DNA from: Alphaproteobacteria bacterium
GTDB lineage: Bacteria; Pseudomonadota; Alphaproteobacteria; RF32; CAG-239
Length of the DNA stretch: 64,000 nt
NCBI GenBank assembly: GCA_045116295.1
Contig: JBGULQ010000012.1
Span: forward strand, 25,678-89,677
Reading direction: 5' to 3'
The translations under genes and the position numbers were made by a program. Shown piece by piece: positions 42,421-61,194 of the stretch. How positions within the stretch are numbered: the stretch's first letter is position 1; each line of letters starts with the position of its first letter. The notes under the pieces were generated by a model. That model was not told where the DNA came from. It ran no database searches and saw nothing but the letters and a program-made list of their open reading frames with translations.

Positions 42421-44536
42421 CCAACTTTAAGGAATTTTGCCATGAAAAAACTATATTTATTTTCCTTGATTGCATTTTCGCTCGTTTCAATCAACGCTTT
42501 TGCTCAAGATGAGGATTTGCACGATGCCGCCGTTCTATCCGAACATTTCAAAAGTCCTCAACAATTCACCACATGGTACAAAGGACTCAACCAAGAAAAT
42601 AAAGATCTCGTTTTAGCAGGTACAATATACACCTGTAAGCCTGACTTGACCAAAACCGCCTTGGCAGAGGGGGGCAATATCAACACAAAAATATCGGTCA
42701 TAAATATTACCTCCGGCCACGATGATCATTCCTCAGCATACATTTACGCATACAGTTCTGGTGATATTGATGATTTCATGATGGAAGTAATAGCCGCCGG
42801 TATGGAAAAATCGGCGCAAGCCGTAAAAGAAGAAAGTTGCGGACACACATTTTCTCACATGTCAAGCGAAACTCCCGGATTGATGTCATTAATCTCTGCT
42901 AGCATAAAATTTTGCCCAACTACAGATACAAAAGCGAAAATGTTGCAACTTTTAAAATCAAATGGCTCAGATATAAACGAAACCAACTATTTACATGTTT
43001 CTCCCTTATCAGAAGCGATTGAGCAAAAAAATATCAAAATGATAGAACTTTTATTGCAAAATGGCGCGGATTTCAGCAAGACCTTTGCCCTTTCACGCAT
43101 GATAGATAAATACGATACATTTCACCCCAATGCCGAAACTGAAGCAATATGGGATTATGTTATAGCGTATCTGCAAAATCACAAACTCACACCTGAAGCC
43201 GAAACCGACGCCTATATAAAAGGTCGCTTAAGAATTAAGTATCTACATACACCTGAAGCCGATATTGACCTTTATACTGACGATTTTGATGCCGCTTGGA
43301 TAAAAGATCGCCTAGAAGAAGACAATCGACTTAACACCAAATTAGAACAACTAAATTTACACCCGGACTATAGTACAATAGCCGCAAAAGAAGGAATATT
43401 GGCCGCTGCTGAACAACATAAATATACTTTACTGCAAGAACTGGTAGATAATGGAGTTGACGTAAATTATCAAAACGAAGATGGACGCACTGCACTATTT
43501 CATGTAACAAACATTTATATTCATAATCTAAACGATGAAGATATTGAAGCAATAAAATATTTATTAAATCATGGTGCAGACATAAATCATCAAGACAAAT
43601 ATGGACGCACCGCATTATTTCATGTAACAAACACTCCTAAACCGAGCAATAAAGACATTGAAGCAATAAAATATTTATTAAATCACGGTGCAGACACAAG
43701 TATTAAAGATAAAGATGGTAAAACTGCCTTTGATGATTGTGCTTATAAAATTTGTAAACTTAGTCCATATGGTATGCGAAAATTCTCACCTGACGACAAA
43801 ACTACTATACCAACGTTAAGCCAAGCTATTGATGAAAATGATTGTGCTACCATCGTTGAGCTTATTAACAAAGGAATAGATCCTTACATAAATATCTACG
43901 GAGAAGCCTTATTTTTCCGTATGTATCACACAGATAATAGAAAATGTCTAAAAAATATTTTAGACCTTGGTATTGACCTAAATAAAGTTGTTATAATTAG
44001 AGATGATAACGGGGATATTGAGGACATTGATACCGCTCTAACTTACGCCGAACAATATTTTTGGTCACAAGATATAATTCCGCTATTAAAACAATACGGA
44101 GCCACTGAAACTGATGACGTACAACGAATACGAACATATAAGAAAATAATAAATGGCAGTCATGTAATATTCGGATACAACGCGCAAAAAGAGGCAAGTA
44201 TACGGCAAAAACTAAAAGAAAAAGATCTTAAAGATTGGGAAATTGAGGTATATCAACAACTACTCAAAAAACAAGAATACATGAAAATACATGAAAATGA
44301 TCCAGATCCAGTAGATTCTTTTCATAGATAACATTACCAACAAATTTAAACTCAAAAAAGCTTTTGATCTATAACTAAATTTAGGAGGCTCTACATGAAA
44401 AAACTATATTTATTTTTCTTGATCGCATTTTCAATCGTTTCAACCAACGTTTTTGCTCAAGATGAGGATTTGCACGATGCCGCCGTTCTATCCGAACATT
44501 TCAAAAATCCTCAACAATTCACCACATGGTACAAAG
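42380..44536 (+). repeat. Dispersed direct repeat (42380-42583 vs 44334-44536)
   Basis: Glutaredoxin 3' tail plus the start of the next gene is duplicated; the ~86-bp core has one mismatch. Confidence 0.85.
42442..44331 (+). CDS. Secreted ankyrin-repeat protein
   Basis: Signal peptide; repeats GRTALF..IKYLLNHGADIN, LLLQNGAD. Confidence 0.9.
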   Translation: MKKLYLFSLIAFSLVSINAFAQDEDLHDAAVLSEHFKSPQQFTTWYKGLNQENKDLVLAGTIYTCKPDLTKTALAEGGNINTKISVINITSGHDDHSSAYIYAYSSGDIDDFMMEVIAAGMEKSAQAVKEESCGHTFSHMSSETPGLMSLISASIKFCPTTDTKAKMLQLLKSNGSDINETNYLHVSPLSEAIEQKNIKMIELLLQNGADFSKTFALSRMIDKYDTFHPNAETEAIWDYVIAYLQNHKLTPEAETDAYIKGRLRIKYLHTPEADIDLYTDDFDAAWIKDRLEEDNRLNTKLEQLNLHPDYSTIAAKEGILAAAEQHKYTLLQELVDNGVDVNYQNEDGRTALFHVTNIYIHNLNDEDIEAIKYLLNHGADINHQDKYGRTALFHVTNTPKPSNKDIEAIKYLLNHGADTSIKDKDGKTAFDDCAYKICKLSPYGMRKFSPDDKTTIPTLSQAIDENDCATIVELINKGIDPYINIYGEALFFRMYHTDNRKCLKNILDLGIDLNKVVIIRDDNGDIEDIDTALTYAEQYFWSQDIIPLLKQYGATETDDVQRIRTYKKIINGSHVIFGYNAQKEASIRQKLKEKDLKDWEIEVYQQLLKKQEYMKIHENDPDPVDSFHR

Positions 44537-44922
44537 AACTGCCGACAAAAGATAAAAATCTCGTTCTTGCCGGCACAGTACATGCTTGCCGTTCCGAGCT
44601 TACACAAATTGCTCTTAATAACGGCGGAGATGTTAACACCAAACTTCTCGTTCTTACAGTAACTTCCGGTCACGACGAAGATGGCACAGATTACCTCTAT
44701 ACATATAATCGAAGCGACGGCGACCAAAACCTTGTTTCTGTACGAGCTATACAAGACGGCGTAAAAAGAAGCCAAAACGCCACCAAAAAAGAAGATTGCG
44801 GACACGATTTTTCGACCATGGGTGCAACCACACAAGGTTTTATCACCCTGAATGATGTTGCCACTCAATTCTGCAAACAACAAACTGATGCCGCAAAAAT
44901 GAATGAGATACTCAAACACTAA
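44395..44922 (+). CDS. Secreted protein, paralog of the N-terminal domain of the ankyrin protein
   Basis: AQDEDLHDAAVLSEHFK shared; conserved Cys and TSGHD. Confidence 0.8.
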   Translation: MKKLYLFFLIAFSIVSTNVFAQDEDLHDAAVLSEHFKNPQQFTTWYKELPTKDKNLVLAGTVHACRSELTQIALNNGGDVNTKLLVLTVTSGHDEDGTDYLYTYNRSDGDQNLVSVRAIQDGVKRSQNATKKEDCGHDFSTMGATTQGFITLNDVATQFCKQQTDAAKMNEILKH

Positions 44923-44944: not shown

Positions 44945-45415
44945 ATGCACTTGTTCGAAAACTATCGTAAAACTCCAGCTTATAAACTCTGCTGGAAAAT
45001 CACAGTATTATACATTCTTGTAACAGTGTGTTTAAGCGTCTTTCTCCAAACTGCAATTGTTTTTTTCTTCCTTATATCATGTGGTTCATTTTTCATCACT
45101 TTCACTTCCTTATCAATATTCAGTATATTTCAAAGCAAACAGTGCAAAAAAACGGAAATAAACAATAGCATCGCATCCGACATAATTATATATATTACCA
45201 TATTTACCATCACTTGGTTTTGTTATAGCTTAGCAGTTGGAAGTATAATGTGCACTATTATTTTTGCCATCATATCAATAATTGGCTTATTTTGCAAAAA
45301 ACAAAACAAAAAAACAGACTATAAAACCAGCATTATCGCTGATATTGGATACATTATAGGCTTATTGATCTGTTGTAATTGCATAGTATTTCTGCAACAA
45401 ATTTTTACAAATTAA
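44945..45415 (+). CDS. Hypothetical membrane protein with internal duplication
   Basis: Several TM segments; two similar CKK...SI(A/I)(S/A)DI units. Confidence 0.55.
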   Translation: MHLFENYRKTPAYKLCWKITVLYILVTVCLSVFLQTAIVFFFLISCGSFFITFTSLSIFSIFQSKQCKKTEINNSIASDIIIYITIFTITWFCYSLAVGSIMCTIIFAIISIIGLFCKKQNKKTDYKTSIIADIGYIIGLLICCNCIVFLQQIFTN

Positions 45416-45421
45416 TACATC

Positions 45422-45896
45422 AAACGGCAATTTGGCACTCTGCACAATAAAAAATCCGCCTTTCAGGCGGACTTTTTAATGGCGGGAGTGACGGTCGCTA
45501 AGTAAAAACAAGCCACTAAAGCTTGTTTTTGTCTGCAAGACCAACGGAACATCTTGTTGAGCAAGGCTCTGACAAGAGCCACAGCGAAATTAGATGCCGT
45601 TGTATAGCCTCGTTACAAATTGCCGCAAAAAACGGCAATTTGGCACTCCGAGCAACAAAAAATCCGCCTCTTCGGCGGATTTTTAATGGCGGGAGTGACG
45701 GTCGCTAAGTAAAAAACAAGCTACTAAAGCTTGTTTTTGTCTGCAAGACCAACGGAACATCTTGTTGAGCAAGGCTCTGAGAAGAGCCACCGCGAAACTA
45801 GATGCCATTGTATAGCCTCGTTACAAATTGCCGCTAAAAACGGCAATTTGGCACTCCGAACAATTAAAAAATCCGCCTTTCAGGCGGACTTTTTAA
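45422..45896 (-). repeat. tRNA-linked tandem repeats (two full units of 207 and 210 bp plus a partial unit)
   Basis: TGGCGGGAGTGACG at 45480, 45687 and 45897; near-identical units, each with a terminator. Confidence 0.92.
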
Positions 45897-45973
45897 TGGC
45901 GGGAGTGACGAGGCTCGAACTCGCGACCTCCTGCGTGACAGGCAGGCGCTCTAACCAACTGAGCTACACCCCC
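45897..45973 (-). tRNA. tRNA-Asp (GTC)
   Basis: GGGGGTGTAGCTCAGTTGGTTAGAGCGCCTGCCTGTCACGCAGGAGGTCGCGAGTTCGAGCCTCGTCACTCCCGCCA. Confidence 0.97.
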
Positions 45974-46141: not shown

Positions 46142-47545
46142 TTGTTTAAAGATTTTATACAACAAATTTATCCCTCGATTAAAACCAAGCAATGTTGGGT
46201 AACATTTTGCTCTACATTTGCTGTGGCTTTAGCTCTTATATTTGTAATTTCAAAAAACGGCTCAGTCAAAGCCTCTGTTCCGCACGATACCTCAATCACC
46301 GCGCTTCAAACCAGTGTTGAAGAAGATGGCTTTGAAGAAGAAACTATCATCGCTGAAGAAGAAGAAAGAACTCCTGTTCCTCATGATGGCAAATACACCA
46401 TTGACGTTAAATCCGGCGATACATTATTAAGCATTTTGACTGAAATGGGGGTTGAATATAAACACGCAAACGACGTATTTGTATCCATTCGTAAAGTATT
46501 TAACCCGCGTGACCTGCGTGTCGGGCAGAAAATTGAGATTGAAACCGCCACCATTGACGGATCTTATCTTATAAAATCCCTTACTTCAACATTGCGTACC
46601 GGACAACACCTGAATGTTGCCCGCAACGACAACGGTTCTTATTCAGCTCAGATTGATAAAGATGAACTGATTGAAGAAATCAAAACCGTCCACGGAACAA
46701 TTAACGGCATTTTATCAACATCGATGAATAAAGACGGTGTACCAAGCCGCATAATTGCCAATTTTATCCACATTTTCTCGCCTGGCGTTGATTTTCGTCG
46801 TGATATCAAAAAAGGTGACAGCTACGAGATTATGTATAAAAACTATCTCACACCTGATGGCATCATTGTCAAGAACGGCAACATCGTTTACGCCTCACTG
46901 ACTACCGGCAAAAACAAAAGGGAACTTTATCGTTTTAAAGATGCGAGTGGTATGGTAGATTACTACAACTCCAAAGGTGCAACAATTAAGAAAAATCTGC
47001 TTAGTCGCCGCCCAATGGCCCATCAATCGAGCCGAATTTCATCATATTTCGGTCGTCGCCGTCACCCGATATACAAGGATATTCGCACTCACTGGGGAGT
47101 TGACTACCCTGCACCCAAAGGCTCATTGGTCTACGCTGCCGGCAACGGCATCGTTGAGGTTGCACAATATCGCAATGGCTACGGTAACTACATCCGCATC
47201 AAACATAATGGTGAATATTCTACCGCATACGGCCACCTAAATGGCTATGCTCGAGGCATTCGCAATGGAGTTCGTGTCAAACAGGGACAAATTATAGGTT
47301 ATGTCGGCTCAACCGGACGCTCTACCGGTCCTCACTTGCACTATGAAGTAATTCGTAAAGGACAACGTGTCAATCCGCTAACCATCAAGGCTACTGCCAA
47401 TAACAACCTCTCAGGCAAAAATCTGGCTAACTTTAAGCATCAAGTCAACAAAATTAATGGTACACTCAAAAACATGATGGCTAATGCTAAAAAGTCTGAA
47501 AAATTGGCTCAAGAACAGACCAATCAGTCTGAACAAGTAAACTGA
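46142..47545 (+). CDS. M23 peptidoglycan DD-endopeptidase (MepM-like)
   Basis: TM anchor, GDTL LysM-like segment, HWGVDY, STGPHLHYEV. Confidence 0.92.
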   Translation: MFKDFIQQIYPSIKTKQCWVTFCSTFAVALALIFVISKNGSVKASVPHDTSITALQTSVEEDGFEEETIIAEEEERTPVPHDGKYTIDVKSGDTLLSILTEMGVEYKHANDVFVSIRKVFNPRDLRVGQKIEIETATIDGSYLIKSLTSTLRTGQHLNVARNDNGSYSAQIDKDELIEEIKTVHGTINGILSTSMNKDGVPSRIIANFIHIFSPGVDFRRDIKKGDSYEIMYKNYLTPDGIIVKNGNIVYASLTTGKNKRELYRFKDASGMVDYYNSKGATIKKNLLSRRPMAHQSSRISSYFGRRRHPIYKDIRTHWGVDYPAPKGSLVYAAGNGIVEVAQYRNGYGNYIRIKHNGEYSTAYGHLNGYARGIRNGVRVKQGQIIGYVGSTGRSTGPHLHYEVIRKGQRVNPLTIKATANNNLSGKNLANFKHQVNKINGTLKNMMANAKKSEKLAQEQTNQSEQVN

Positions 47546-47958
47546 TTTTTATCAACCCCGTTTATCGTTTTTATTGCCGGATTTCTCATAATTGCCGGTA
47601 ATTCGACGCTACGAAAAACGCTCCGCGGATCGGCGTGCTTAACAAATGCCGATATATTTCCGCTCGCTTGAGCAATAAAACGCTTTGAAGCCACAGCCCA
47701 AATTTCTGCAACTTTCAACTTATCCTGCTCATCAAATCCGTCACCATCGCCGAACAACTCATTCAACGCACTTCCACACGGAGTTTGGTCAATCATCATT
47801 GCTGACGGATTATTTTTTATATATTCAAATGCCGCATCTTTATTTTCTTTAGTCGGCAAAAAGCTGATTGAATACAACACGACACAATCAGCATTTGAAC
47901 TGACATCAAACGTCTCGGCAATTTTCATTGCCTTGTCATACAAATCTTTATCAATCAA
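47524..47958 (-). CDS. Putative ADP-ribosyl cyclase/NAD+ glycohydrolase (ARC, CD38-like) domain protein
   Basis: [15 protein letters not shown]...SVFRSVELP motif; TTG start overlapping the clpB stop. Confidence 0.6.
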
Positions 47959-50509
47959 CTTTTTCTATCTCCAGAGCATTATTTTTAACCACAATTTCAG
48001 CTGTATCATTATCGCCGATTTCATTGTTCAAAATCTTTAACGCCAATTTATTTTCGACTTGCGTCTTCAACAAACGCTTCAACGGACGAGCGCCGAAGTT
48101 CTCATCATAACCATTATTGCTGATCCACGTAATGGCTTCATTGCTGAAATGCAGTTTAATATTTTTCTCTTCCAATCGCTTCTCAATATTGTGCAACTGA
48201 ATTTTGGCAATTTGCTCAATATCATCTTTACTCAGCTTATCAAACATACTTATTTCATCAATACGGTTAATAAACTCCGGTCTGAAAGATGCCTTTACCA
48301 CTTCCATAACTTCATCTTTGGAGCCGCCACGCATTAAAATATCCGAACCCAAATTAGAAGTCATGATGATGATTGTATTCTTAAAATCTACCGTTCTACC
48401 CTTGCTGTCAGTCAAACGCCCGTCATCAAGGACTTGCAATAAAATATTGAACACATCGGGGTGTGCCTTTTCCACCTCATCAAACAAAATAACCTGATAT
48501 GGTCTGCGCCTTACAGATTCGGTCAACGCACCGCCTTCCTCATATCCGACATATCCCGGAGGAGAACCGATTAAACGAGCAACCGCATGCTTTTCCATAT
48601 ATTCTGACATATCAACACGAAACATTGCGTTTTCATCATTAAACAAAAACTCTGCCAAAGCTTTGCTCAACTCTGTCTTGCCCACACCCGTCGGCCCCAA
48701 AAACAAAAATGAACCAATCGGTTGCTTATGATCGCTGATACCTGCACGTGAACGGCGGACTGCATTAGCTACTGCACTAATGGCTTCTTTTTGCCCGACC
48801 ACTCTTTGAGCCAAAAATTCTTCCATCTTCAGCAGTTTATCTTTTTCGCCTTCCAGCATTTTATCAACCGGAATTCCCGTCCACTTTGAAACCACCTCGG
48901 CAATTGCCGCATCGGTAACCACGTGTTCACTATCTCCCTTTTGCTGTTTGGCCACTTCTTCCAATTCATGGAGTTTTTTCTCCAGCTGTGGAATTTCGCC
49001 ATATTGCAACTGTCCTGCCTTTTCAAATTGTCCGTTGCGTTGCGCAATAATTACTTCATTTCTGGCTCTATCCAGTTTCTCTTTAACCTCGGTCAAATCT
49101 GCCAACGCCTGCTTACCGGCATTCCATTTTGCCGAAAGCACATTTGCCTTTTCTTCTTCATCGGCAATCTCTTTTTCAATCTCAGTCAAACGTTTTTGAG
49201 AATTATCGTCTTTTTCTTTTTTCAACGCTTCACGCTCGATTTTGAGTTGCAAAATCTTACGATCAAGACCATCAAGTTCTTCCGGTTTTGAATCAATTGC
49301 CATACGTAGCGAGCTTGCCGCTTCATCCATCAAATCAATCGCTTTATCCGGCAAAAATCGATCGCTTATATATCTGTTTGAAAGCGTAACCGCCGCAATC
49401 AATGCACTATCAGAAATTCTCACCCCATGGTGTAGCTCAAACTTTTCCTTAATTCCACGTAAAATAGAGATACTCTCCTCAATCCCCGGCTCAGCCACAA
49501 ATACCGGTTGAAAACGTCTTGCCAAAGCGGCATCTTTTTCAACATATTTCTTATACTCTGCCAACGTCGTCGCACCCAGACAATGCAGCTCACCGCGTGC
49601 CAATGCCGGCTTTAATAAATTAGAGGCATCCATTGAGCCTTCATTAGCACCTGCTCCGACAATAGTGTGCATTTCATCAATGAATAATATTATATTTCCT
49701 TCGGCTGCTTCTACATCTTTCAACACCGCCTTCAAACGCTCTTCAAATTCGCCTCTGAATTTTGCTCCGGCAATCAGAGCTCCCATGTCCAAAGCCAACA
49801 GTCTTTTGCCTTTCAGACTTTCCGGCACATCGTTATTAACAATACGCATTGCCAATCCTTCAACAATAGCTGTTTTGCCGACGCCGGGCTCACCGATTAA
49901 AACCGGATTATTCTTGGTACGTCGTGACAACACTTGAATTGTTCTTCTGATCTCTGCATCACGTCCGATAACCGGATCAAGCTTTCCTTCTTTAGCCTTT
50001 GCCGTAATATCTATTGCATATTTTTTCAATGCTTCAAAATTGTCTTCTGCACTCTCGCTGTCAGCCAATCGCCCTTGGCGATAGTTAGCAATTGCCGTAT
50101 TTAATTTTTGCGCACTGACACCGCTCGATTTCAAAACTTCACAAGCCTTATTGCCGGCTGTCATTACCAGCGCCTGCAACAATCTTTCAACTGTAACAAA
50201 TTTATCGTTAGCCTTTGCGGCAATTTGCTCTGCCGCCACCATAACTTCATTAAAATCTTGCGACACAACCGTTTGCACATTGCCCGACACCTGTGCAATT
50301 TTAGCTATCTCACTTTCAACACCTTTACGCAAATTTTCAAGGTTGCCTCCGGCATCAACAATCAACTTATCAATTACACCATCATGCGTTGCCAAAATTG
50401 CCTGCAACACTTCCAACGCCGTAACATACTGACGTTTGCCGGCTACTGCTGTATCATAAGCTGATTTTATAATTTCTTGCGAACGAGTAGTAAATTTTTC
50501 TAAATTCAT
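47951..50509 (-). CDS. clpB: Chaperone ClpB
   Basis: Two AAA+ modules ([16 protein letters not shown]) and a coiled-coil middle domain. Confidence 0.97.
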
Positions 50510-50573
50510 GGTTATCATCTCCTATTATCTATATAGGAAGTCACAAACCGCAAAGTCAAGTTTCCATCGCAAT

Positions 50574-50604
50574 AAAAAACGGAGACTTTTAAGTCTCCGC
50601 TTTT
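50574..50604 (-). terminator. ychF terminator
   Basis: AAAAAACGGAGACTT-tt-AAGTCTCCG. Confidence 0.75.
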
Positions 50605-57948: not shown

Positions 57949-58338
57949 ATGAAAAATATTCAACAACTTTTAAATCTTGCCCAAAAAGCCATGGAAAATG
58001 CCTATGCTCCGTACTCAAAACTCAGAGTTGGCGCAGCAATCATTGCTGACAACGGCAAGATATATTGTGGATGCAACACCGAGAACATTTCTTATCCGTG
58101 TGGAACTTGTGCCGAAACCGGTGCCATTGCCGCCATGGTCGCAGACGGAGGAAGATTAATTCAACAAATTGTTATCGTTTCCGACGGTGAAACAATGATT
58201 ACGCCCTGCGGAGCGTGCTTGCAAAGGATTAAAGAGTTTGCCGACACAAACACCGAGATTGTTTTGTTTGATACTGACCAAAACATACACTGCCACCACA
58301 TTGATGACCTGCTCCCCCACGCTTTTGAGGAATTTTAA
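57949..58338 (+). CDS. cdd: Cytidine deaminase
   Basis: AYAPYS, CAE, PCGAC. Confidence 0.95.
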   Translation: MKNIQQLLNLAQKAMENAYAPYSKLRVGAAIIADNGKIYCGCNTENISYPCGTCAETGAIAAMVADGGRLIQQIVIVSDGETMITPCGACLQRIKEFADTNTEIVLFDTDQNIHCHHIDDLLPHAFEEF

Positions 58339-58340
58339 CC

Positions 58341-59141
58341 ATGATTAACACCGACCAACTCAAACAACTTTTGCAAAACAGACATCCTGATACTGCCATC
58401 ATCCTTGGTTCGGGCCTAGGAGCAATTGCTGACAGCATACAAGATCAGCTTATAATAAAATATTCCGACATTGAAGGTTTTCCGACAAGCACAGTAACCG
58501 GACACAAAGGCCAAATGATTATCGGCAAAATCAACAAACAAGAAGTTTTGTGTATGCAAGGACGCTTTCACCTCTACGAAGGATATCAACCTTCAGTTAT
58601 AAAAGATGTAATCGGTGCCCTTAAGGCCGCAGGCATCACAAAACTCATAATCACTAACGCTGCAGGCTCGCTAAACTTTGATATTGCCCCCGGCAAAATA
58701 ATGCTCATAACTGATCACATCAACCTTTCGGGACGCAACCCCTTAATCGGTCCAAATGATGAAAATATTGGTCCTCGTTTTGTTGACATGACTGAAGCCT
58801 ATGACCACAAACTTACACAGCGTTTCAAAGAGCTTGCACGGCAACTAAAAATCTCTCTCCATACCGGTACATACCTTATGGTCACCGGTCCCAATTTTGA
58901 AACGCCTGCCGAAATCAAAGCATTTCGCACTCTCGGAGCCGATGCCGTTGGCATGTCCACCGTACCTGAAGTTATTTCTGCCGCATATTATGGTATAAAA
59001 ACAGTTGCCCTTTCTGTCATAACCAACTTTGGAGCCGGTATGCAAAACGAAAAGCTCAGCCACGAACAAACTTTAACCACCGCAGCACAAGGTCTTGAAG
59101 ATCTGACCTGCCTGATAAAAGCATATTTTACGGAGCAATAA
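58341..59141 (+). CDS. punA: Purine nucleoside phosphorylase (trimeric type)
   Basis: ILGSGLG, GRFHLYEG, GPNFETPAE, GMSTVPE. Confidence 0.95.
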   Translation: MINTDQLKQLLQNRHPDTAIILGSGLGAIADSIQDQLIIKYSDIEGFPTSTVTGHKGQMIIGKINKQEVLCMQGRFHLYEGYQPSVIKDVIGALKAAGITKLIITNAAGSLNFDIAPGKIMLITDHINLSGRNPLIGPNDENIGPRFVDMTEAYDHKLTQRFKELARQLKISLHTGTYLMVTGPNFETPAEIKAFRTLGADAVGMSTVPEVISAAYYGIKTVALSVITNFGAGMQNEKLSHEQTLTTAAQGLEDLTCLIKAYFTEQ

Positions 59142-59142
59142 A

Positions 59143-59880
59143 ATGCGTGACTTTGAATTGGCAAAACAACTAATCTCAAATCTCGACTTAACATCTTTGG
59201 GCAAAAATGACACTGACGATATTGTATCTGCCCTATGCTTGAAAGCACTCAATTCAACACCATCACCTGCCGCGGTATGCATATGGTCAAAATTTGTACC
59301 TCTTGCCACCAAAATCTTAAAAGACAGCAACATTTCCGTTGCAACCGTCGTCAATTTTCCGCGTGGCGGTACAGACATCAAAATGACCATCGCCGAGATA
59401 GTCAAAGCTTTATCCTTAGGGGCAGATGAAATTGATGCCGTATTTCCATATGAAGCTTTTCTGTCCGGCAACATTGACTTATGCCGCCAGTACCTTGAGG
59501 CTGTCACGCACGAAACAACCGGCTCAACTCTCAAAATTATTCTCGAGAGCGGTGCTTTTCCACATATTCGTCACTTGAAAGATGCTTGCCGACTTTGCCT
59601 TGAATACAACATTAGTTTTCTTAAGACTTCAACCGGAAAGACGGACATTTCTGCCACTCCCGAAGCAGCCAATGCCATACTTGAAACAATAAAAGAGAGC
59701 AAACACGAAGTCGGTTTCAAAGCCAGTGGAGGCATTAAAACTTTTGAACAGGCTCGCCAATATTTTTCACTTGCACAAAGCATTATGGGAACCAAATGGC
59801 CACTTGACACCGGACATTTTCGCATCGGTGCCAGCTCACTTCTTGATGACTTGAATGACACTATCAACAAAGGATTTTAA
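59143..59880 (+). CDS. deoC: Deoxyribose-phosphate aldolase
   Basis: LDLTSL, VVNFP, KTSTGK, FKASGG, RIGASSLL. Confidence 0.95.
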   Translation: MRDFELAKQLISNLDLTSLGKNDTDDIVSALCLKALNSTPSPAAVCIWSKFVPLATKILKDSNISVATVVNFPRGGTDIKMTIAEIVKALSLGADEIDAVFPYEAFLSGNIDLCRQYLEAVTHETTGSTLKIILESGAFPHIRHLKDACRLCLEYNISFLKTSTGKTDISATPEAANAILETIKESKHEVGFKASGGIKTFEQARQYFSLAQSIMGTKWPLDTGHFRIGASSLLDDLNDTINKGF

Positions 59881-59883
59881 AAT

Positions 59884-61194
59884 ATGTTGCCCCAAGAATT
59901 GATACGCAAAAAACGTGATCATCACTCCTTAAGCCCTGAAGAAATTAGTTTTTTTATTCAAGGCATTACTGCTGGCACAATCGCCGACAGCCAAATCGGA
60001 GCCATGACCATGGCAATGTTTCTGAATGGTATGAGCAAAAATGAAATTACCGCACTCACCCTCAATATGCGCGATTCCGGAGACACTCTTAAGTGGCACG
60101 GTCTCAATGGCCCGATAGTTGACAAACATTCTACCGGAGGTGTCGGTGATAAAATCAGCCTTATGTTAGCTCCAATGCTTGCTTCATGCGGTGCCTATGT
60201 TCCTATGATATCCGGACGTGGTCTTGGTCACACCGGTGGCACTCTTGATAAATTTGATTCCATTCCGGGTTACCAGACCTGTCCCGACAATTCTTTATTT
60301 GCAAAAACCGTCAAAAACGTCGGTTGCGCAATTATCGGTCAAACAGGCAACCTTGCACCTGCCGATAAAAAAATCTACGCCATTCGTGACGTCTGCGGCA
60401 CTGTTGAATCAATTCCTTTGATTACTGCCTCGATTCTCTCCAAAAAGCTTGCTGCCGGACTTGATTACCTTATTATGGACCTAAAATGTGGCAACGGCGC
60501 ATTTATGAATAATCGCAAAGATGCCCGCTCGTTAGCGCATTCCATAGTAGATGTTGCTAACAACGCCGGCACCGGCACCAAAGCAATTTTGACTGACATG
60601 AACCAAGTCTTAGGCTCTGCTGTTGGCAATGCTGTTGAAATGCAAGAAGCCGTTGACTATCTCAAAAATATAAACGTTGATTCGCGCCTGCACAAAATTA
60701 CTATGACGTTGTGTTCTGAACTTCTGGTTCAATCCAAATTGTTCAAATCTACCGATACAGCTGCAAAACAGTTACAAAAAAACATAGATTCCGGCTTAGC
60801 TCTCGAAATTTTTGCTCGTATGATTGCTTCTCTCGGAGGACCGAAAGATTTTGTTGAAAAAACTGAAAAATATTTACCTCAAAGCCATCTGAAGCTTCCG
60901 GTTTTTGCTGCACATTCCGGTTATATTTCCGCAATGGACACACGTAATATTGGTCTTGCTGTTATTGAGCTCAAAGGCGGGCGCACTCGCCCGGATCAAA
61001 AAATTGATCACGCCACCGGATTTACCGGTTTTTGCCAGATCGGAGACTTTGTTGACACACAAACACCTCTTGCTTATATCCATGCCGCCAATGACGCTGA
61101 TTATCAAAAAGCTGCCGATATTTTGCGTTCCAACATTATCATTTCCGAACAAAAGCCACGTAAAGGTAAAACCATTTTTGAGGTAATCGAATAA
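59884..61194 (+). CDS. deoA: Thymidine phosphorylase
   Basis: DKHSTGGVGD, SGRGLGHTGGTLDK. Confidence 0.96.
   Translation: MLPQELIRKKRDHHSLSPEEISFFIQGITAGTIADSQIGAMTMAMFLNGMSKNEITALTLNMRDSGDTLKWHGLNGPIVDKHSTGGVGDKISLMLAPMLASCGAYVPMISGRGLGHTGGTLDKFDSIPGYQTCPDNSLFAKTVKNVGCAIIGQTGNLAPADKKIYAIRDVCGTVESIPLITASILSKKLAAGLDYLIMDLKCGNGAFMNNRKDARSLAHSIVDVANNAGTGTKAILTDMNQVLGSAVGNAVEMQEAVDYLKNINVDSRLHKITMTLCSELLVQSKLFKSTDTAAKQLQKNIDSGLALEIFARMIASLGGPKDFVEKTEKYLPQSHLKLPVFAAHSGYISAMDTRNIGLAVIELKGGRTRPDQKIDHATGFTGFCQIGDFVDTQTPLAYIHAANDADYQKAADILRSNIIISEQKPRKGKTIFEVIE

Follow-up and report, generated by a model that had tools for sequence, protein, structure and literature searches.

How does a bacterial cell live with a CD38-like enzyme inside it that appears to carry a complete active site? 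This biochemical question is raised by a 64,000-nt stretch of alphaproteobacterial DNA (contig JBGULQ010000012.1; hereafter, the window), in which a 144-aa open reading frame (ORF) lies directly behind the disaggregase gene clpB. An earlier note, made from the sequence, had described this ORF as a stand-alone CD38-like ADP-ribosyl cyclase (ARC) or NADase coupled to clpB and had offered a stress signal, phage defense, or a domesticated toxin as its possible roles. Here, the ORF, its predicted product, and its relatives were analyzed computationally; the host genome is labelled G000, and loci of relatives carry labels of the form L0xx. The reading that we favor, with a probability of roughly 0.5, is that ARC is a metabolic, non-toxic glycohydrolase of NAD(P) or related pyridine nucleotides, which would be co-expressed with clpB in the host.

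The ORF behind clpB is predicted to adopt the CD38 fold

To place the window protein, sequence profiles were searched first against known families and structures. On its own, the protein scored 13.3 bits (E value, 0.052) against PF02267 (Rib_hydrolayse), for which the Pfam gathering threshold is 25 bits, and a single-sequence search of the Protein Data Bank (PDB) barely matched two entries. PF02267 was matched at an E value of ≤1 by 37 of the 52 ARC-family sequences in our conservation alignment, all below the threshold (best E value, 2e-4), and the threshold was passed by more distant relatives (P0120, 28.5 bits; P0170, 26.3 bits; P0224, 29.0 bits). Two profiles were compared with the PDB: A1, representing the ARC family, and the bridged profile A2, in which A1 is joined by more distant relatives from a search of 1.84 billion proteins (308 matches at an E value of ≤0.001). 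With A1 and A2, respectively, E values were 4.5e-5 and 4.8e-13 for the Pantoea type VI secretion system (T6SS) ARC toxin 9ro8, 2.3e-4 and 4e-12 for Tac1 (9ouf), 4.5e-4 and 6.2e-10 for pig CD38 (5bnf), and 0.034 and 1.8e-9 for Aplysia cyclase. Among the matches listed for A2 at an E value of ≤0.01, 40 of 40 were ARC-family entries.

An AlphaFold2 model of the protein (pLDDT, 91.6; pTM, 0.85) was then compared with known structures; a longer beta1-alpha2 loop (SFLPTKENK) in the protein might gate its cleft. Foldseek, which the earlier note had proposed as a check against CD38 and toxin ARCs, returned 9ro8 as the top match (E value, 1.7e-5), followed by dozens of CD38 chains, both with a probability of 1.00, so the predicted fold is not an unrelated one. 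VIA-align, which is independent of Foldseek, also ranked 9ro8 first among 48,161 chains (Z score, 9.9; root mean square deviation, 3.6; 118 aligned residues), ahead of Aplysia cyclase (Z score, 8.7), BST-1/CD157 (8.2), and pig CD38 (7.5). Below these ARC entries came a MARTX NADase domain (6.2), TIR domains (about 5.5), and nucleoside 2-deoxyribosyltransferases (about 5). Collectively, the profiles and the predicted structure bear out a stand-alone CD38-like protein, whose fold is, as modelled, the two-lobed ADP-ribosyl cyclase (ARC/CD38) fold.

The catalytic positions of ARC are conserved

Using profile A2, Y29, D57, W87, and E119 of the window protein were aligned with residues 35, 61, 85, and 118 of the 9ro8 chain, which, with an offset of 238, are W273, E299, W323, and E356 of the Pantoea toxin (ARCtox). 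Alanine mutants of these four ARCtox residues lose toxicity, as reported by Martinkus et al. (PMC12605009). S30, S91, and R93 join the four as further catalytic-position residues. The family motifs VLYS, (M/T)I(D/E)xT, IWxxASKRF, and FRSxELP have as their counterparts FFWSG, VTLEST, KAWEDVS, and NVELP in 9ro8; VFWS, FTLENT, FWNLLSKRF, and GRVEV in pig CD38; and MFWSG, ITLEDT, FWGMASSSY, and KYELP in Aplysia cyclase. The motif line-up with CD38 that had been made by eye was thus reproduced in hidden Markov model (HMM) alignments to CD38, Aplysia cyclase, and two bacterial ARC structures. Likewise, the residues it had singled out as candidates, W87, S91, and E119, align to CD38 W189, S193, and E226, and W87 and E119 to ARCtox W323 and E356.

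Within the 52-sequence alignment, E119, which aligns with the catalytic glutamate (CD38 E226, ARCtox E356), was invariant (52/52), and W87, S91, and R93 were each present in 51/52 sequences. The first aromatic position, that of CD38 W125, is not tryptophan: it is Y29 in the window protein and was Y in 50 and F in 2 of the 52 sequences, and Y is found there in many toxin-tip relatives as well. Position 57, the counterpart of CD38 E146, Tac1 E516, and ARCtox E299, was always acidic (D in 31 and E in 21 of the 52), with Asp in the window protein. According to Colautti et al. (PMC12356396), Tac1 E516/CD38 E146 drives hydrolysis of the cyclic ADP-ribose (cADPR) intermediate, and its removal leads to cADPR release. 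As an acidic residue is always kept at position 57, mainly linear products are predicted for this family.

Two genera carry second, divergent ARC copies away from clpB, in which E119 has been lost to C or D, or W87 to F, while the clpB-linked copy in the same genera retains both E119 and W87. The degenerate paralogues have the look of relaxed selection on the active site, and the main copy appears unlike them in this respect. The paralogue in L091 is one gene away from a NadE-type NAD synthase, and small ORFs without a Pfam family make up the rest of its neighborhood.

ARC is a real gene and probably the second cistron of a clpB operon

Coordinates and minus-strand reading of the ORF agree with the 144-aa length, the TTG start, and the 8-nt overlap with clpB given in the earlier note (Table 1). 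Homologues (n = 77; 115 to 176 aa) were all unannotated or labelled "hypothetical protein." The 52-sequence alignment had a mean column identity of 52% with 15 invariant columns, and comparison with the nearest relative, L002, gave a dN/dS of 0.15 (19 synonymous and 13 nonsynonymous differences). The homologues, the conservation of the alignment, and this dN/dS value together establish the ORF as a real gene, and ARC is under purifying selection. In the same pairwise comparison, the dN/dS of clpB was 0.005.

Table 1. Coordinates of the clpB-ARC unit in the window and of notable ARC forms in relatives
Feature	Position	Strand	Basis or remark
ARC (CD38-like) gene, 144 aa, TTG start	47524..47958	-	ORF listing, profiles, model, conservation
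clpB, first cistron, 855 aa as listed	47951..50518	-	Pfam AAA_2, ClpB_D2-small, Clp_N
Overlap of clpB stop and ARC TTG, 8 nt (TTGATTGA)	47951..47958	-	ORF coordinates and sequence
Shine-Dalgarno GGAGA, 9 nt before ARC TTG, within clpB coding end	47968..47972	-	Read from sequence
Sigma-32-like promoter motif CTTGA-N18-CCTATAT upstream of clpB	50531..50560	-	Sequence and motif scan of relatives
Hairpin and T-run after ychF, intrinsic-terminator-like	50571..50599	-	Sequence; stem 50580-50599 from hairpin scan
Convergent M23 peptidase gene	46142..47545	+	ORF listing, Pfam; bounds the unit
HAD-ARC fusion	L043:5326-6435		One of two metagenome-assembled species, with the next row
HAD-ARC fusion	L063:5311-6420		One of two metagenome-assembled species, with the previous row
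Divergent ARC paralogues	L089, L090 (genus g19); L091, L092 (genus g22)		

The position of the GGAGA element ahead of the TTG gives the ARC ORF its own ribosome-binding site inside the 3' end of clpB. The coupling to clpB that had been described for the window is thus upheld, with ARC as a second cistron that combines the 8-nt overlap with its own Shine-Dalgarno sequence. The same overlap geometry was found in L002-L005, L008, and L041 by tblastn coordinates, and the TTG start is shared by the closest relative, L002. As read from the sequence, this geometry fits translational coupling. The N-terminus of ARC, judged by inspection and not with a predictor, is charged and has no hydrophobic stretch, and the protein is accordingly predicted to be cytoplasmic, without a signal peptide. 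At the other end of the gene, the convergent M23 peptidase gene shares 22 nt with the 3' end of ARC.

The start of clpB is probably the ATG at 50509, because GGAG stands 10 nt before it and relatives mostly align from residue 4; the listed start at 50518 (MITMNLEK) has GGAG only 1 nt before its ATG. Upstream, the hairpin and T-run after ychF look like a terminator that would separate ychF from the clpB-ARC unit. In Logan contigs from four metatranscriptome runs with sparse cover, one RNA-library contig bridged the clpB/ARC junction (269 nt; depth, 2; 47856-48124). A single contig of this kind, for which DNA carry-over is possible, is too weak for co-transcription and was not counted as evidence.

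ARC is a near-core gene of one family and lacks the marks of a toxin or defense gene

ARC is single-copy in the host genome (1.37 Mb, 100% complete). Carriers comprised 227 of the 283 genomes of the order, 178 of its 219 high-quality genomes, and 18 of its 24 genera, and all belong to one family, f1; in genus g9, 24 of 56 genomes have the gene. Outside f1, an even sample of the class gave 5/248 matches, only one of them strong (44% identity, on a 70%-GC contig). ARC is near-core, and inherited vertically, in a single family of gut/rumen Alphaproteobacteria with small genomes.

No delivery domain was found in the ORF, which is a bare 144-aa ARC core. No immunity gene adjoins it, and with clpB on one side and the convergent M23 peptidase gene on the other there is no room for one. 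Elsewhere, Imm74 (PF15603) was matched in 0/29 genomes of the genus; since control genomes were also unmatched, this search does not establish genome-wide absence. The N-terminus, the extent of the ORF, and its neighbors thus confirm the earlier observation that ARC has no signal peptide, delivery domain, or adjacent immunity gene. The more distant relatives, by comparison, are polymorphic-toxin tips, found with RHS, haemagglutinin repeats, WXG100-like domains, DUF6861, a PAAR-like tail, and PT-TG (below cut-off). In the search for longer forms of the family itself, the one candidate was a 308-aa protein of ARC and partial ODP on a single 2.4-kb contig, a possible gene-calling or frameshift artifact that was given no weight; this search was of limited reach, as the HAD-ARC fusions described below were not recovered by it. 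The HAD part of those fusions is not a delivery domain.

PADLOC (PADLOC-DB 2.0, a library dating from 2023) gave no match for the window protein and, among 16 relatives and neighbors, only two weak unrelated matches. Neither defense-island neighbors nor a sensor partner were found at the ARC locus. Phage defense, one of the roles first suggested for this ORF, is disfavored by these results together with the near-core, single-copy, syntenic nature of the gene. Judged by sequence and context, ARC is best read as a non-toxic ARC and not as a weapon, a defense gene, or a mobile gene.

ARC is linked to clpB, to an rpoH block, and to a HAD phosphatase

To explore the contexts of ARC, 80 loci from GTDB species representatives were sampled, 78 of which had upstream DNA sufficient to be judged; the relatives are metagenome-assembled genomes throughout. 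In 54 of the 78 informative loci, clpB was directly upstream of ARC on the same strand, with its end at -4 to +45 nt from ARC, and in the other 24 ARC was found elsewhere. Conservation of the clpB linkage, which the earlier note had asked after, therefore holds for the 54 loci and not for the 24. Kin are not independent, and the counts of 54/78 and 227/283 reflect few evolutionary events. Six of the loci (L003, L048, L050, L064, L072, and L075) are labelled Bacteroidaceae, Lachnospiraceae, Eubacteriales, or [Ruminococcus] gnavus; they share alphaproteobacterial synteny and near-identical proteins, and the bins are probably mislabelled or mixed.

The motif CTTGA-N18-CCTATAT upstream of clpB resembles the alphaproteobacterial RpoH (sigma-32) consensus. 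Of 50 relatives, 42 have a relaxed form of it ahead of clpB and the other 8 have near variants, and this relaxed motif is rare, with 47 matches in all 1.74 Mb of loci on both strands. In 19 or 20 of the 24 non-clpB loci, ARC was the last gene of an rpoH-prmC-DUF4167 block, which was complete in 17 or 18 loci and seen only in part in L054 and L056; rpoH was identified by TIGR02392 (325.9 bits; cut-off, 323.1). The gene directly upstream of ARC encoded a HAD phosphatase in 11 loci and DUF4167 in 7 or 8. In 2 loci, HAD and ARC were fused in frame (369 aa), with both the DxDxT motif and the ARC half intact, and the 373-aa open frames found at the ARC match in G083 and G086 probably represent this fusion too. 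ARC was also found near an aldose-1-epimerase gene in 3 loci.

The ARC-linked HADs had their best match in TIGR01993 (pyrimidine 5'-nucleotidase), below its cut-off (fused HAD, 114.5 versus 142.9 bits), and fused and adjacent HADs shared only 23-24% identity. On the ARC tree (137 columns, many forks unresolved), HAD adjacency must have changed at least 5 times, and loci with the clpB context fall on either side of the midpoint root. Of the arrangements, the clpB operon probably came first. Judging from these contexts, it probably gives heat-shock co-expression in the host, as a wiring that is not obligatory; the recurrent link of ARC, including a Rosetta-stone-type fusion, appears to be the one to a nucleotidase-type phosphatase. 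In the host genome, rpoH-prmC-DUF4167-metallophosphoesterase lies on another contig, without ARC and without a linked HAD. The metallophosphoesterase beside DUF4167 was considered as an ADP-ribose (ADPR) pyrophosphatase step and rejected: its best matches were YaeI- or LpxG-like and below cut-off, and since in the host it is encoded away from ARC, it is not counted in the system.

The host genome has no recognizable NAD synthesis or salvage

The host genome was searched for enzymes that make, salvage, or import NAD. No match was found for PncC (PF02464; controls matched in 10/14), PncA-type isochorismatase (PF00857; 11/14), NAPRTase/NAMPT (PF04095, covering PncB/NadV; 8/14), NadA (PF02445; 12/14), or PnuC (PF04973; 4/14). 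The TLC NAD/ATP transporter family was likewise unmatched, an uninformative result, as no control matched either. No credible NadD/NadR/NadM or NadE was present: the sole cytidylyltransferase-like match was a TagD-like domain fused to an oxidoreductase, by a teichoic-type transferase, and the sole "NAD synthase" match was MnmA. NadD (TIGR00482) was above cut-off in 0/91 sampled f1 genomes, with matches of ≤29 bits only, and the NAD kinase search in the host gave a 21-bit match only.

The NAD-dependent DNA ligase LigA is present in the host (2.3e-94), so NAD is used and nicotinamide mononucleotide (NMN) is produced. With no recognizable synthesis or salvage, the host seems dependent on outside NAD or on unrecognized enzymes, and as far as these profiles reach the lineage may import NAD or use enzymes of unknown type. 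An enzyme that cleaves NAD inside the cell is all the more puzzling where NAD synthesis seems to be missing.

A proposed metabolic glycohydrolase and its rivals

In the mechanism that we propose by homology, ARC would cut NAD(P)+, or a related pyridine nucleotide or nucleoside, between nicotinamide and ribose. The substrate would be held between Y29 and W87, E119 would stabilize the ribosyl oxocarbenium intermediate as E226 does in CD38, and the acidic position 57 would favor water attack, giving ADP-ribose-type products rather than released cADPR. The clpB-ARC operon would be read from the sigma-32-like promoter; given the operon, this promoter, and the start/stop overlap, ARC should be made together with the disaggregase. 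Where a HAD phosphatase is linked, it would consume or provide a phosphorylated partner, for example ADPR-2'-phosphate, NMN, or ribose-5-phosphate. Its placement and fusion in sister genera are the reason why the role is read as controlled pyridine-nucleotide turnover with a phosphatase and not as interbacterial killing. The range of plausible substrates is widened by other reactions of the animal enzymes, namely hydrolysis of nicotinamide riboside for BST-1 and base exchange on NMN for CD38 (PMC8604996, PMC11903787), and yeast Sdt1, which is of the TIGR01993 type, has been discussed as an NMN nucleotidase (PMC13191266). What ARC cleaves and yields, that its toxicity is low, that heat induces it, and what it does for the cell are all inferred here.

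Several observations weigh against a metabolic, non-toxic glycohydrolase made with clpB. The window protein falls below the PF02267 threshold (13.3 versus 25 bits), and its substrate and product were inferred from distant homologues of 15-19% identity. A full catalytic set without immunity would be dangerous if turnover were Tac1-like; for the cell to tolerate it, the enzyme would have to turn over slowly, have a high Km, prefer another substrate, or be regulated. Not all loci show the heat-shock link, as 24/78 are without clpB, and the sigma-32-like motif was found near ARC in 0/24 of these non-clpB loci, where the two matches that do occur, in L043 and L049, fall away from ARC. The clpB link could also be inherited synteny, because kin are not independent. 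A HAD of the linked type was not found in the host genome (none in a single-protein search; best match of a 13-sequence HMM, 27 bits, to other HADs), so the two-step pathway cannot run in that form there. A role in NMN disposal gained no support from a comparison with PncC, which was present in 5/283 genomes, four of them also with ARC and one without, showing no complementarity.

Among the rivals, ARC might instead be a stress second-messenger synthase, with heat shock leading to cADPR, ADPR, or a 2'-phospho form that is read by a receptor. Its place behind clpB and the sigma-32-like motif, and at the end of the rpoH-started block in 19 or 20 of the 24 non-clpB loci, would suit such a role, a neighboring phosphatase could degrade or mature the signal, and with Nac1 there is a bacterial ARC that releases cADPR, for which a physiological role has been proposed (PMC12356396). 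However, the acidic residue that suppresses cADPR release was present in 52/52 sequences, whereas Nac1 has alanine there; no receptor candidate stood beside ARC in any context; the non-clpB loci are without the sigma-32-like motif; and a fusion to a nucleotidase-type HAD would be more typical of consecutive metabolic steps. We consider a signal synthase unlikely, and the acidity of position 57 and the repeated HAD link lean towards hydrolysis and metabolism over cADPR signaling. We give only a small chance to a native ADPR/cADPR-type pathway that acts on proteotoxic stress, as second messenger or NAD(P) brake, with the HAD as its second step; if true, it would give the CD38 fold its first bacterial role in physiology and outside conflict. 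A catalytically silent ligand binder, such as a sensor of NAD or ADPR with the fold retained but not the turnover, would explain tolerance without immunity and would accommodate a first aromatic residue that is Y and not W and an often shorter D at position 57. We judge it improbable in view of the invariant catalytic Glu and the nearly invariant W87, S91, and R93; many toxin-tip relatives carry Y at the first position too, and relaxed selection is seen in the degenerate paralogues and not in the main copy.

It is also improbable that ARC is a toxin or a host-directed effector, exported by an unrecognized route from a producer that unlinked immunity or tight repression protects. All four ARCtox toxicity positions are occupied in its catalytic set (Y29, D57, W87, and E119), its more distant relatives tip RHS, filamentous-haemagglutinin, WXG100-like, and PAAR-type proteins, and the genome encodes secreted ankyrin-repeat proteins, a hint of eukaryotic-cell contact. 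Set against this, ARC is without delivery domain, signal peptide, or adjacent immunity gene, whereas toxic ARCs adjoin immunity genes in both published studies (PMC12605009, PMC12356396); it is near-core, single-copy, and syntenic with housekeeping genes; and Imm74 was found in 0/29 genomes of the genus, in a search without a positive control. NAD depletion is a common output of defense, and the fold has a distant likeness to TIR domains (Z score, 5-6), which would accord with an anti-phage abortive-infection NADase whose outcome is like that of TIR or SIR2 effectors. To this we give hardly any credence: PADLOC had no match for ARC and two weak unrelated ones among the 16 relatives and neighbors, sensor partner and defense-island context are lacking at the locus, and the lineage-wide vertical conservation of the gene stands against the patchy spread of defense genes.

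Other features of the window

At 45405-45973, next to tRNA-Asp (45897-45973, minus strand), a unit of 208 nt is repeated about 2.5 times in tandem. Each unit holds a copy of the tRNA-Asp 3' end (TGGCGGGAGTGACG...) and a terminator-like hairpin, and an Rfam search of this region found only tRNA-Asp itself. The units look like a repeated partial duplication of the tRNA 3' end, possibly integration scars. The ORF at 42442-44331 encodes a protein of 629 aa that has ankyrin repeats (Pfam Ank_2, Ank_4) and an N-terminus resembling a signal peptide. The 175-aa ORF after it (44395-44922) is a truncated paralogue, in which the first ~60 residues nearly match those of this protein. The secreted ankyrin protein and its paralogue hint at contact with eukaryotic cells. 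A nucleoside-catabolism cluster 10 kb from ARC (57949-61191) encodes cytidine deaminase, a purine/uridine phosphorylase-family protein, DeoC aldolase, and pyrimidine-nucleoside phosphorylase.

Comparison with known ADP-ribosyl cyclases

ARC toxin tips were predicted in 2012 by Zhang et al. (PMC3482391) and characterized in 2025 (PMC12605009, PMC12356396). In these three papers, bacterial CD38-fold enzymes figure mainly as toxin tips that kill through loss of NAD(P)+, toxic ARCs adjoin immunity genes, and Martinkus et al. describe ARC domains as occurring "exclusively" with secretion-targeting domains (PMC12605009). Non-toxic ARCs ("Nac") were named in the same year by Colautti, Kim, and Whitney in J Biol Chem, with a single secreted example characterized (PMC12356396). 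The stand-alone ARC of the earlier note is therefore confirmed here but is not new as a kind, non-toxic bacterial ARCs having been reported in 2025 with Nac1 (PMC12356396). In the full-text literature searched, no report on an ARC-ClpB linkage or a follow-up on Nac1 was found; the supplementary tables of the 2025 papers may list members of the present family.

The animal enzymes CD38, BST-1/CD157, and Aplysia cyclase share with ARC the fold (Z score, 7.5-8.7) and the motifs W/Y-S, acidic-x-T, W..S.R, and the catalytic E. The metazoan ARCs are, however, ecto-enzymes of ~250 residues that contain disulfides and additional helices, and their identity to the present protein is 15-19%. TIR-domain and MARTX RDTND NADases resemble it in N-glycosidic cleavage of NAD+ and in a distantly similar Rossmann-like core (Z score, 5.5-6.2), but they are different families, with scores clearly below those of the four ARC entries and without the ARC motifs. 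The best profile and structure matches, Tac1 (9ouf) and Pantoea ARCtox (9ro8), have the same ~140-residue core and the same four catalytic positions. Those toxins, delivered by type VII (Tac1) and T6SS (ARCtox) secretion, sit at the C-terminal end of LXG or PAAR proteins, have immunity proteins beside them, and cause fast NAD(P)+ depletion, whereas the present ARC has neither delivery domain nor immunity, bears Tyr for the first Trp, and is chromosomal, syntenic, and conserved.

Nac1 is likewise a bacterial ARC fold outside polymorphic-toxin clusters and without an immunity gene, and it was purified from E. coli cytoplasm without immunity (PMC12356396). It has features of its own, namely a Sec signal peptide, Ala at the second-glutamate position, and a cADPR:ADPR ratio of ~1:1 (PMC12356396). 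Compared with this published description, the present family has no signal peptide, keeps D/E, and is near-core. The Nac authors state that gene neighborhoods gave no clue to function (PMC12356396), whereas the clpB operon, the rpoH block, and the HAD contexts are informative here. The family thereby supplies functional context clues that the described neighborhoods of non-toxic ARCs did not, and its proteins of 144 to 369 aa form a tractable set for work on a housekeeping or stress role of ADPR/cADPR chemistry in bacteria. With ARC toxin tips and non-toxic ARCs already known as a kind, what appears to be new is an ARC predicted to be cytoplasmic, with a full catalytic tetrad, that is near-core in its family, co-cistronic with clpB behind a heat-shock-type promoter motif, and joined or fused to a HAD phosphatase in relatives.

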